Below, piece after piece: positions 6,716 through 9,346 of a DNA stretch of 14,441 bases. Origin of the DNA: a virus (lineage: Duplodnaviria > Heunggongvirae > Uroviricota > Caudoviricetes). The DNA is taken from IMG/VR virus record IMGVR_UViG_2531839554_000008; one strand, given 5' to 3'. The notes below the pieces were generated by a model. The model was not told the origin of the DNA. It searched no databases and worked only from the letters and a program-made list of their open reading frames with translations. The number at the start of each line of letters is the position of its first letter. Positions within the stretch are counted from its first letter, which is position 1. A program made the position numbers and the translations under genes.

Positions 6716-6738
6716 AGCTGGAGCAATCCGGCTTTTTT
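6716..6738 (+). terminator. rho-independent terminator after ssb
   Basis: Stem GCUGGA/UCCGGC (one G-U pair) with GCAA tetraloop, followed by UUUUUU (6733-6738). Confidence 0.6.
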
Positions 6739-6812
6739 ACGGGTCCTCCCGGTGTAGTGACCTGCCACGGGGCGGGAGCGTCGCGGAAAAAGGCTGGTTT
6801 TTGCATTTTCAT
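6732..6812. repeat. ~81-bp direct repeat, copy 1 (CTTTTTTACGGGTCCTCCCGGTGTAGTGACCTGCCACGGGGCGGGAGCG...TTGCATTTTCAT)
   Basis: Near-identical (about 2 mismatches) to 9266-9346; both copies begin at the U-tract of a terminator. Confidence 0.8.
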
Positions 6813-6998
6813 GGCGGCGGCAGCATGTGTGATAATTTATTGATAATTAAAAATTATTTCTGTTTTCACCTGTACAATATTTTTTTCTCCCTGTCATTAG
6901 ACTAGTTTGCAATTAATTGAAATATATAAATAAATTGGTTTTTCACCTGCCAGATGGAGTTGCCTGTGCAAAACGTGTTCAGATGGCGGGATATTTAT

Positions 6999-7021
6999 GC
7001 CGGATTCTCTCCGGCTTTTTT
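6999..7021 (+). terminator. rho-independent terminator in the ssb-to-capsid gap
   Basis: Stem GCCGGA/TCCGGC with loop TTCTC, followed by TTTTTT (7016-7021). Confidence 0.5.
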
Positions 7022-7123
7022 GTGTCTGAATCTGATTAATCTATTTTTATGATAGAAATATGTTTATCTACCACTTTTATCGATCAATAATGCGCGCAGT
7101 TTAGTCAGTAAGAGGAAGTTACT

Positions 7124-7330
7124 GTGAATTGTATTAACGACCTGAACACAGGCGAGGTAAAAGGTGGTTCCGTTCATCTGGATGCGCAGACCGTTATGCG
7201 CCTTAAGCAGTACAGGATCGACCATATAAATCATCATCCTAACAAACCATTACCAGGTGTGGCGCAGATTGTCAGACATGCCGTAAACACCTGGCTTAAT
7301 CAGAATGGTTTTGCATCGGTGGGGGAATAA
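7124..7330 (+). CDS. hypothetical small protein (68 aa), first gene of the capsid operon
   Basis: GTG start with AGAGGAAG RBS 6 nt upstream; MNCINDLNTGEVKGGSVHLDAQTVMRLKQYRI...; stop overlaps the ATG of the capsid gene (TAATG). Possibly a small DNA-binding protein; not assignable. Confidence 0.55.
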   Translation: MNCINDLNTGEVKGGSVHLDAQTVMRLKQYRIDHINHHPNKPLPGVAQIVRHAVNTWLNQNGFASVGE

Positions 7331-9243
7331 TGAATCGCTGGTACACCATTAAGGCGGCGGATGTTCGTGGAGCGGCGGATATATCTATCTATGAGGAGAT
7401 TGGCGGCTTCGGTGTTACTGCAAAGCAGTTCGCGGAAGACCTGAAAGCCCTTGGCGATGTTTCACATATCAATCTGAGGATCCATTCACCAGGTGGTGAT
7501 GTGTTTGAAGGCATCGCCATCTATAACCTGCTACGGAATCATCCGGCAGACATTACGGTTTATATCGATGGTGTTGCGGCTTCAATGGCTTCGGTGGTCG
7601 CAATGGCTGGCGATCGTGTAGTGATGCCGGAGAACGCCATGATGATGATCCATAAACCGTGGGGGATCTCTGGCGGAAATGCTGGCGATATGCGTGATTA
7701 TGCTGATTTGCTGGATAAGGTGGAAACCGTGTTAATCCCTGCTTATGCCAGAAAAACGGGCAAATCAGCACAGGAAATTACCGCCATGCTGGAGGATGAA
7801 ACCTGGATGGATGGGAAAGAATGCCTTAAGCACGGTTTTGCTGATGAATTGTTGCCATCCGTCAGAGCAATGGCGCGAATTGAATCGAAACGCACAGGAG
7901 ATTTTTTACATATGCCGGAAACCATTAAAGGAATGATTACACCGCCACAGGGAGCGGCAAATATTGCTGGTAATGAACAGAAGCGCATCAATGGAATAAG
8001 TGAAGTGTTTAGCCTGTTCGGCAGTCGTTACGACGGGATCAAAATGGCGTGTCTGGAAGATGCATCATGTACACCGGAAATGGCCCGTGAAAAGCTGTTG
8101 AACGAGCTGGGGCGCGAGTCCACGCCATCCAATAAAAATACCCCGCCTCATATCTATGCCGGAAACGGAAACATAACAGGTGATGCAATTCGTCAGGGGC
8201 TTTATTCCCGTCTTGGGTATGAACGCCCTGAACGAGGCAACCCTTACGCGATGATGAGCCTTTTTGAAATGGCCCAGGCATCACTGGTTGATCGTGGTAT
8301 CACTGTGAGCGGTTTTATTAATCGCTCGCAGGTTGTTAATGCGGCTTTTACACACAGCAGCAGTGATTTTTCTCATATTCTGGCTGGTGGGGCTGAAAAA
8401 TCTGTACTGAAAGGCTGGCAGGACAGCGGCGAAACGTTCCAGAAATGGACGCGTACCGGTTCGCTTTCAAACTTTCATGAAGCAAAGCGCGTTGGTCTGA
8501 ATGGTTTTTCAAAGCTGGATAAAGTACCGGAAGGTGCGGAATATAAATACATCACCACCAGCGATAAAGGTGTACCTATTGCGCTGGCCACGTACGGGAA
8601 TATTTTTTCCGTTACCCGTCAGGCCATTATCAACGATGACCTGACCCAGTTAACTACAATCCCCATGGCGATGGGACGCGCAGCCGCCAGAACAGTTGGC
8701 AATCTGGTTTATCTCCTGTTAACCAGCAACGGCAAGTTTACGGATGGTAAAGCGTTATTCCATGCCGATCATAAAAATCTTATTGCGAAGGATATGGACA
8801 TGGTGGGGCTTGATGAAGCCCGTAAGCGGATGCGCCTCCAGGAGGATGCTAACGGCGACTCCCTGAATATTACCCCTGCTTTTGTTCTGGTCCCTGCCGC
8901 GCTGGAATCTGCCGCGCGTCGCGCCATTTTGTCATCGTCATCAGTCTTTCCGGTTGGTGATGAGAGCACTATCAATCAGAACCCCGGCATCATTAACGTG
9001 GTGAAAGATATGGCAGAAGTAATTGTTGAGCCACGTCTTGATAAGGCCAATAGCAAGGAATGGTATGTAGCCGCAGCTAAGGGGATGGACACAATAGAAG
9101 TCGCTTATCTTGATGGGATGGATACGCCATATCTTGAGGAGCAGGTGGGCTTTACTGTTGATGGTGTCGCCTGGAAAGTACGCATAGATGCAGGTGTCGC
9201 GGCCCTCGATTATCGCGGATTACTGAAATCGAGTGGAGCATGA
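7330..9243 (+). CDS. prohead protease (ClpP/S14-like) fused to major capsid protein (HK97-fold type) in one polypeptide
   Basis: 637 aa. N-terminal ~180 aa carries ClpP-family motifs GVAASMASVVAMAGD (Ser nucleophile) and MMIHKPW (His). The C-terminal ~370 aa (from about residue 270) reads like a phage major capsid protein (capsid assignment by family recall, untested). Translational coupling with the upstream ORF. Confidence 0.85.
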   Translation: MNRWYTIKAADVRGAADISIYEEIGGFGVTAKQFAEDLKALGDVSHINLRIHSPGGDVFEGIAIYNLLRNHPADITVYIDGVAASMASVVAMAGDRVVMPENAMMMIHKPWGISGGNAGDMRDYADLLDKVETVLIPAYARKTGKSAQEITAMLEDETWMDGKECLKHGFADELLPSVRAMARIESKRTGDFLHMPETIKGMITPPQGAANIAGNEQKRINGISEVFSLFGSRYDGIKMACLEDASCTPEMAREKLLNELGRESTPSNKNTPPHIYAGNGNITGDAIRQGLYSRLGYERPERGNPYAMMSLFEMAQASLVDRGITVSGFINRSQVVNAAFTHSSSDFSHILAGGAEKSVLKGWQDSGETFQKWTRTGSLSNFHEAKRVGLNGFSKLDKVPEGAEYKYITTSDKGVPIALATYGNIFSVTRQAIINDDLTQLTTIPMAMGRAAARTVGNLVYLLLTSNGKFTDGKALFHADHKNLIAKDMDMVGLDEARKRMRLQEDANGDSLNITPAFVLVPAALESAARRAILSSSSVFPVGDESTINQNPGIINVVKDMAEVIVEPRLDKANSKEWYVAAAKGMDTIEVAYLDGMDTPYLEEQVGFTVDGVAWKVRIDAGVAALDYRGLLKSSGA

Positions 9244-9249
9244 CAACAA

Positions 9250-9272
9250 GGGCGGCGACAGCCGCCTTTTTT
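9250..9272 (+). terminator. terminator hairpin after the capsid gene, doubling as a cosN-like sequence
   Basis: GGCGGC-GACA-GCCGCC followed by TTTTTT; the segment GGGCGGCGAC (9250-9259) equals the first 10 nt of the lambda cohesive end as recalled (GGGCGGCGACCT). Confidence 0.55.
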
Positions 9273-9346
9273 ACGGGTCCTCCCGGTGTAGTGACCTGCC
9301 ACGGGGCGGGAGCGGCGCGGAAAAAGGCTAGTTTTTGCATTTTCAT
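9266..9346. repeat. ~81-bp direct repeat, copy 2
   Basis: Matches 6732-6812; lies between the capsid gene and the Nu1-like gene. Confidence 0.8.

Follow-up and report, generated by a model that had tools for sequence, protein, structure and literature searches.

The window analysed here, the 14,441-nt viral record IMGVR_UViG_2531839554_000008 taken at its full length, is 100% identical to the chromosomes of Escherichia coli BH100N, F11, MS 200-1 and others, and holds a 10.6 kb satellite of the phage-inducible chromosomal island (PICI) type inserted between cspD/yljB and clpS. In the annotation by the Prokaryotic Genome Annotation Pipeline (PGAP), the chromosomal genes macB, cspD and yljB precede the island, and clpS and clpA follow it. 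The island itself encodes, in order, an integrase, a helix-turn-helix regulator, Icd-like and DUF4222 proteins, a primase, the single-stranded DNA-binding protein Ssb, a fusion of a ClpP-like protease and the major capsid protein, a DUF1441 protein and the product of a small open reading frame (ORF). The att-like repeats at its ends share an identical 3' core (ACGGTGTAGT.AATGGTGTAGTTAATTTT), and the size of the island follows from the 10,599 bp between them. An att-bounded island of 10–15 kb, with gene order and homology shared with the islands of CFT073 and IHE3034, corresponds to a Gram-negative cos-type PICI. Two copies of a direct repeat flank the capsid region of this island. We conclude that both copies are very probably lambda-type cos sites, one (cos2) cognate to the island and the other (cos1) captured from a phage of the cdtI type.

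A repeat search of the window delineated the repeat as 85 nt (6728–6812 and 9262–9346), identical at 82 of 85 positions (96%), with 2534 bp from start to start; no other repeat in the window comes close to it in length. An earlier note, made from the sequence alone, had described it as a near-identical element of about 81 bp. In that frame (6732–6812 and 9266–9346), 79 of 81 bases indeed match, the differences being 6781 T/9315 G and 6796 G/9330 A, and a third mismatch (6731 G/9265 C) lies just to the left. Both copies end on the right with TTGCATTTTCAT. The placement reported in the note was also borne out: each copy starts in the T-run of a terminator hairpin and precedes a morphogenesis or packaging unit, and the hairpins directly upstream of the two copies have the GC-rich stem followed by six T that defines intrinsic terminators (Table 1). 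Among 5426 complete E. coli genomes, 2065 have a match to the 81-mer, as do 31 records of lambdoid phages, and in every case the match falls on the cos position; chance is thereby excluded as the origin of the repeat.

The note had listed a packaging-related site among several options for the function of the repeat, and it is this option that the comparison with phages singles out. Both copies can be aligned base for base to lambda cos as well as to the termini of phages cdtI, phi458, 606R10 and mEp460. The end junction of lambda reads ...ACGGGTCCTTTCCGGTGATCCGACAGGTTACG/GGGCGGCGACCT/CGCGGG, and that of the island reads ...ACGGGTCCTCCCGGTGTAGTGACCTGCCACG/GGGCGGGAGCGT/CGCGGAAAAAGG. Counting base pairs from the first base of cosN, the region shared by the two copies spans −42 to +43. 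It comprises cosQ, cosN and bp 13–43, which is the part of cos read by the helper large terminase. The cosQ sequence GGGTCCT is invariant in cdtI, phi458, 606R10 and mEp460; in both island copies it occupies positions −29 to −23, compared to −30 to −24 in lambda, and is separated from cosN by 22 bp. The partial dyad CCCGGTG-N11-CACGGGG pointed out in the note is present at 6748–6772 and 9282–9306, but is merely this cosQ–cosN spacer. At cos1, the nicks are predicted to fall at 6769/6770 on the top strand and 6781/6782 on the bottom strand.

The note had also proposed to search the 81-mer against phages for positional conservation. In the 31 phage records, it is found either at the genome ends or in the gap between the lysis genes and the small terminase gene, terS. 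Its distance to the right end is about 150 nt in mEp460, mEp213 and mEp043, and it occupies position 1 of cdtI, Tritos and mEp460_4F5; in 606R10 and phi458, as in the B19374 and 042 prophages, it separates the lysis genes from terS. For cdtI and Tritos, the first base of the database record is exactly the first G of the predicted cosN. A search of the phage collection for a virion-derived record of the island, which would carry its physical ends, found none, and a full-text literature search for GGGCGGGAGCG, the cohesive-end string, brought up nothing but unrelated papers. The homology, position, architecture and distribution of the two sites are matters of observation; that both are cut is what their sequence predicts.

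The two copies diverge exactly where small-terminase recognition, in the region known as cosB, is predicted to begin. R3, the element recognized by the small terminase (TerS) or Rpp in lambda and in PICIs, is located at about bp 48–65 (PMC9026076), and the repeat ends at bp +43, just before the equivalent position. Beyond that point, the flanks of cos1 and cos2 are unrelated (54% identity over bp 44–184). The region following cos1, cosB1, is 92.9% identical to its counterpart in the B19374 prophage and nearly as close to that of cdtI (Table 1). These two phages encode an identical TerS, designated type 1 here. The similarity of cosB1 to the type-2 cosB is about 55%. The homology between cos1 and cdtI extends from −36 to +208, past the ATG of the cdtI terS gene at bp 185, and ends about eight codons into it; in blastn, window positions 6734–6977 are 89.8% identical to cdtI over 244 nt. 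A hairpin at 6999–7015 follows the resulting terS stub. Within cosB1, two 39-nt direct repeats (6834–6872 and 6911–6949), 77 bp apart and each ending in TTTTCACCTG, are also found in cdtI and are candidate TerS-binding (R) sites, whereas a repeat search of cosB2 found no R-site-like repeats.

The region following cos2 belongs with a different group of phages. The identity of cosB2 is 66–70% with the corresponding regions of phi458, the 042 prophage and 606R10, which have the type-2 TerS in common, and about 55% with type 1. Window positions 9268–9930 are 73.8% identical to the cos and terS region of phi458. The island protein encoded directly downstream is assigned to DUF1441, the Pfam family that also includes the TerS of cdtI and of phi458. 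It shares 68–71% amino acid identity with the TerS of phi458 and 606R10, whereas with cdtI TerS the C-terminal half alone can be aligned (47%). The literature retrieved for DUF1441 consisted of phage-genome papers that, by title and abstract, are unrelated. The type-1 and type-2 phage TerS proteins are 42% identical. The large terminases of B19374 (type 1) and of phi458/606R10 (type 2) are 88% identical except for the first 20 residues, which fits a shared cosN and cosQ combined with different cosB, and the upstream lysis proteins of the B19374 and 042 prophages are identical. With the same cosN but different cosB and TerS, these phages form a pair similar to lambda and phage 21, which likewise share cosN and differ in cosB, TerS and the N-terminus of the large terminase. 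In the favoured reading, cos2 (9275–9499) is the cognate packaging site of the island, directly upstream of its own TerS homolog. The second site, cos1 (6741–6953), was captured from a lambdoid phage of the cdtI type, along with eight initial codons of its terS.

Table 1. Coordinates of the island features in the window (bp, position counted from the first base of cosN; aa, amino acids).
Feature	Position	Strand	Remarks
attL-like repeat	572–640	+	69 nt, 78% identical to 11171–11239; just before the integrase gene
Integrase gene	661–1899		
ssb	6278–6700	+	last gene of the replication module; single-stranded DNA-binding protein (PGAP, identical locus)
Minus-strand ORF over copy 1	6576–6812	−	78 aa
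Terminator after ssb	6713–6738 (stem 6713–6722/6727–6736; T-run 6733–6738)	+	−17 kcal/mol, z −3.8
Repeat copy 1, cos1 core	6728–6812	+	T-run, cosQ, spacer, cosN, bp 13–43
cos1 cosQ	6741–6747	+	GGGTCCT; 29 bp upstream of the nick; aligns with lambda cosQ
cos1 cosN	6770–6781	+	12-nt cohesive-end sequence GGGCGGGAGCGT; aligns with lambda GGGCGGCGACCT
cosB1	6813–6953 (bp 44–184)	+	cdtI-type predicted TerS-recognition region; 92.2% identical to cdtI
Remnant of cdtI-type terS	6954–6977	+	ATG at bp 185; translation MELPVQNV...
Conserved region upstream of the p68–capsid operon	7011–7123	+	outside the repeat
p68	7124–7330	+	68-aa gene; directly upstream of the capsid gene in 8 related islands (tblastn)
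ClpP-like prohead protease/major capsid fusion gene	7330–9243	+	Pfam CLP_protease and Phage_capsid_4; PGAP name; between cos1 and cos2
Minus-strand ORF over copy 2	9152–9346	−	64 aa
Terminator after the capsid gene	9248–9272 (stem 9248–9256/9261–9269; T-run 9267–9272)	+	−16.2 kcal/mol, z −3.4
Repeat copy 2, cos2 core	9262–9346	+	
cos2 cosQ	9275–9281	+	GGGTCCT
cos2 cosN	9304–9315	+	12-mer GGGCGGGAGCGG, identical to that of phage mEp460
cosB2	9347–9499 (bp 44–196)	+	diverged phi458/mEp460-type predicted TerS-recognition region
Island small-terminase homolog	9500–9985	+	DUF1441, 161 aa; start codon at bp 197 of cos2; PF07278, E 1.7e-36
Possible third, unrelated cos fragment	11033–11069	+	37 nt, 100% match to phiP27 21809–21845
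attR-like repeat	11171–11239	+	just before clpS

The distribution of the two sites among related islands points to the same division. The stretch from ssb to terS is held, at 80% or more, in 183 of 5426 complete E. coli genomes, and the ssb–cos1 junction is found in 299 genomes. A related capsid fusion (71–79% amino acid identity) is encoded by satellites of Trabulsiella, Yersinia, Buttiauxella, Phytobacter, Kluyvera, Moellerella and Rahnella. In all seven of these cross-genus satellites a cos site directly follows the capsid gene, and in none is there one at the cos1 position. Among the E. coli islands that possess this capsid and TerS, the five with ssb have both cos1 and cos2, and the three without ssb have cos2 alone. 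cos2 is therefore the sole cos present in every relative examined and forms a cognate unit with terS, whereas cos1 travels with ssb. Comparison of the five double-cos islands showed 2.1% segregating sites in the cos1 core, the least variable block, 2.9% in the capsid gene and 13% in cosB2. Outside the window lineage, the two copies are 92.5% alike. Four of the five double-cos islands have a phage-like cos2 spacer (GGTGGGGTGGTCTGCC), and that of the window and of one further island, L012, is of the cos1 form (GGTGTAGTGACCTGCC), so that the 96% identity of the copies in the window is explained in part by a lineage-specific conversion of the cos2 spacer to the cos1 type. The island L012 (E. coli L3_CS7_E2980, 3043–9345) is located beside tRNA-Ile and contains two tandem capsid-fusion genes, each followed by its own cos and the second of them truncated at its 5' end; this arrangement looks like a product of recombination between satellites.

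In the proposed mechanism, induction of a helper would lead to excision of the island and its replication into concatemers. The helper large terminase, guided by TerS bound to cosB, would then introduce staggered nicks at cosN, packaging would proceed rightwards, toward terS, and a later cosQ/cosN would terminate it once the head is nearly full. Four island units amount to 42.4 kb, compared to helper genomes of 44.5–47.0 kb, and the related island EcCICFT073 is likewise reported to fill full-size heads (PMC6092414). In this scheme, cos2 together with the island TerS would provide a private specificity, and cos1 would be acted upon directly by a cdtI-type terminase, so that the two cosB types may allow helpers of two specificity classes to package the island. 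Candidate helpers were counted using chimeric queries that combined an island marker with a phage terS; the number of places per genome was scored, and the baseline was verified locally. The counts refer to the 60 best island-bearing genomes, which are not phylogenetically independent. A type-2 cosB/terS module is present elsewhere in the genome in 48 of the 60 carriers, including all 18 that match the window exactly, and is a candidate resident helper.

Several observations weigh against the assignment of both copies as cos sites, one cognate and one captured, or against the use of both. The cdtI-type terS occurs elsewhere in only 9 of the 60 carriers, none of them among those 18, and there is no intact terS beside cos1. 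Given its strict linkage to ssb, cos1 could be a hitchhiker, and cosB2, as the most variable block, may be only weakly constrained. With two direct cos sites in each unit, sub-genomic products of 2.5 kb and 8.1 kb might arise as well. The physical ends of the phages were deduced from the starts of database records, one of which begins 5 nt earlier. Furthermore, the second cos of EcCICFT073 is not needed for transfer by lambda or phi80 (PMC6739421), and EcCIIHE3034, which occupies the same att site, is transferred very poorly (PMC6092414, Table 1).

Multiple cos sites are general in this PICI family, being present not only in EcCICFT073 but also in EcCIIHE3034 and the JE86-ST02 island, with three sites each, and in an island embedded in a helper in E. 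coli, in which two direct cos sites flank the capsid gene. A broader proposal is that such islands gather several different cos sites and use them like a set of keys. The island described here would then hold two cosB classes and a phiP27-like fragment, it could be packaged by two or three helper terminase specificities, and the shared cores would serve as joints for module swapping between islands and phages. We consider this proposal tentative, and somewhat less likely to be true than false. The phiP27-like fragment may be a third cos of an unrelated class, as suggested by its perfect match to a segment of phiP27 that overlaps 7 of the 10 nt of the annotated cos site, located in that phage between the HNH endonuclease and terS genes. 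A weaker similarity to phiP27 extends to the left of 11033 (context 10989–11075), about 100 nt before the right att repeat. A 91-nt segment around the match is found in 125 E. coli genomes; in the one other genome inspected, it is part of a decayed island beside tRNA-Pro. In other E. coli PICIs, cos sites of different classes are located at 9528, 11970 and 12909 (L096, IHE3034), at 7464, 9905 and 10735 (L093) and at 7464 and 10001 (L094), including a site right after ssb with the 12-mer region GGGCGGGAGGCG. The position after ssb is absent from EcCICFT073 and receives no mention in the PICI literature cited here.

The strongest alternative holds that cos2 alone works, cos1 being a neutral scar left by past recombination with a phage of the cdtI type, retained through its linkage to ssb and with little time to decay. 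The presence of cos1 in five of five islands with ssb and zero of three without, the dead eight-codon terS stub that follows it, the lack of enrichment of cdtI-type terS in the carriers and the dispensability of the second cos of EcCICFT073 for transfer (PMC6739421) would all be expected of such a scar. However, cos1 lacks none of its parts: it has cosQ, cosN and 141 bp of a cosB that is 92% identical to the phage sequence. Across five islands with an overall divergence of about 4%, no block varies less than the cos1 core. Moreover, the lineages L093, L094 and L096 also have a cos after ssb, of a different class, which looks like repeated re-targeting rather than decay. On balance, we regard the scar explanation as unlikely, although it deserves serious consideration.

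It is more doubtful still that cos1 serves mainly as an additional termination site, for which only cosQ and cosN are needed, or as a joint at which annealing of cohesive ends permits exchange of modules. Both copies do contain the complete core from −29 to +43, and packaging initiated at cos2 would reach ends at 39.9 kb (cos1) and 42.4 kb (cos2), within the capacity of 44.5–47 kb heads. Homology between lineages also breaks at the cos core, with ssb and cos matching up to window position 6815 and diverging thereafter, and in the window lineage, cos2 has acquired a spacer of the cos1 type by conversion. Yet, neither role accounts for the retention of 141 bp of phage-like cosB1, and the two 12-mers differ at the last base (T vs G), which would produce a mismatch upon annealing of mixed ends.

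Besides packaging, the earlier note had raised late activation, antitermination and RNA structure as options, and it had pointed to short ORFs on the minus strand, which could mark the start of a small gene. A structured RNA was rejected: an Rfam scan of the whole window detected CRISPR (clustered regularly interspaced short palindromic repeats) elements only and no RNA family at the repeat, both copies on both strands fold no better than shuffled sequences (z from −1.7 to +0.15), and the two plus-strand copies give different structures. The minus-strand ORFs described in the note do open in both copies (Table 1), but the peptide they share is not conserved: in cdtI a stop occurs at codon 4, and in 606R10 there is no ATG, so a small protein gene was rejected as well. 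A simple promoter scan revealed nothing within or beside the repeat. The conserved promoter-proximal block of the capsid operon lies instead outside the repeat: positions 7011–7094 are 88% identical to the region upstream of the homologous gene in the Kluyvera satellite, and positions 7037–7092 are 84% identical in the helper-embedded E. coli island. The region 7011–7123 is a candidate late promoter or operator and, judged by this conservation, a more likely place for late-gene control than the repeat. Hence, although each copy is situated between a terminator and the next operon and opens an ORF on the minus strand, we give almost no credence to a role in transcription control, RNA structure or coding for a sequence that also occurs at the ends of phage genomes.

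Some further features of the locus are recorded here. The island capsid gene shares only about 68% nucleotide identity with the capsid genes of helper-type phages. The p68 product has no Pfam match; the BH100N annotation (PGAP) calls a 57-aa minus-strand ORF (7064–7237) and omits p68 on the plus strand, which is probably a mis-annotation. Short direct and inverted repeats (GTAGACAG/CTGTCTAC) cluster at 5807–5917, immediately after the primase gene, the usual place of the PICI replication origin. Near the right end of the island, a 27-nt element with the palindrome TTTTCCACCATTGGTGGAAAA is present in two copies, 710 bp apart (10374–10401 and 11084–11110). Downstream of clpA, outside the island, three type I-F CRISPR repeats spaced 60 bp apart (14247–14397; Rfam CRISPR-DR4, two above threshold) probably represent an orphan chromosomal array: the same locus in IHE3034 contains a full I-F cas operon, and in BH100N nothing is annotated between clpA and tRNA-Ser.

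The two cos sites of the island can be compared with characterized systems. As in lambda, cosQ precedes the nick by about 29–30 bp, the 12-nt 5' end begins with GGGCGG and is followed by CGCGG, and the TerS gene starts at a similar distance (bp 185–197 here, 191 in lambda; PMC9026076). The island differs from lambda in the 12-mer and cosB sequences, in having a DUF1441 small terminase rather than Nu1 and in carrying two sites in one small replicon. EcCICFT073 has the same Gram-negative PICI backbone, with 77% and 92% amino acid identity in the integrase and primase, respectively, and two functional-looking cos sites (Fillol-Salom et al. 2018, PMC6092414; 2019, PMC6739421) with helper-like cosQ/cosN, of which the one at the packaging gene also follows a terminator T-run. 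However, its sites are inverted, 0.8 kb apart and flank rppA, whereas here two direct sites lie on either side of the capsid gene at a distance of 2.5 kb; its 12-mer is that of lambda (GGGCGGCGACCT) rather than that of cdtI/mEp460; and its cosB, which resembles no phage, is read through Rpp (PMC6739421), in contrast to the two phage-like types of the present island. The adjacent gene here encodes a DUF1441 TerS homolog and not Rpp: the CFT073 protein at the rppA position gave no DUF1441 match in Pfam and no blastp match to the island protein. With cosB1 at 92–93% and cosB2 at 66–70% identity to phage cosB, and no adjacent rpp, the sites do not conform to the Rpp-redirected type of PICI cos. 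EcCIIHE3034 shares the integration site between cspD/yljB and clpS, the gene order and a TerS gene (PMC6092414), but its late module comprises a lambda E-type capsid, a decoration protein and a lambda-type TerS, and its three cos sites are found after ssb, before terS and, inverted, after terS. The cos-type Staphylococcus aureus pathogenicity islands (SaPIs) exemplified by SaPIbov5 also combine a helper cos sequence with a homolog of the helper capsid (PMC5052747, PMC8569155); they are Gram-positive elements of unrelated sequence, and several cos sites per element are not reported in those two papers.

Multiple cos sites in E. coli PICIs are already known, and cloned cos sites make plasmids transducible (PMC6092414, PMC6739421); to that extent, the finding is largely ordinary. 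What sets this island apart from the published cases is the arrangement of the sites as direct repeats around the capsid gene, the two phage-like types of cosB and the TerS homolog in place of Rpp. What had been an unexplained repeat now precisely locates the packaging signals of an E. coli satellite that is common, its module being carried by about 183 of 5426 complete genomes. If the two sites answer to two classes of helpers, this would explain how small satellites can do without an Rpp protein and still keep a broad range of helpers; the second cos of EcCICFT073, seemingly useless with lambda and phi80, may then serve another helper.

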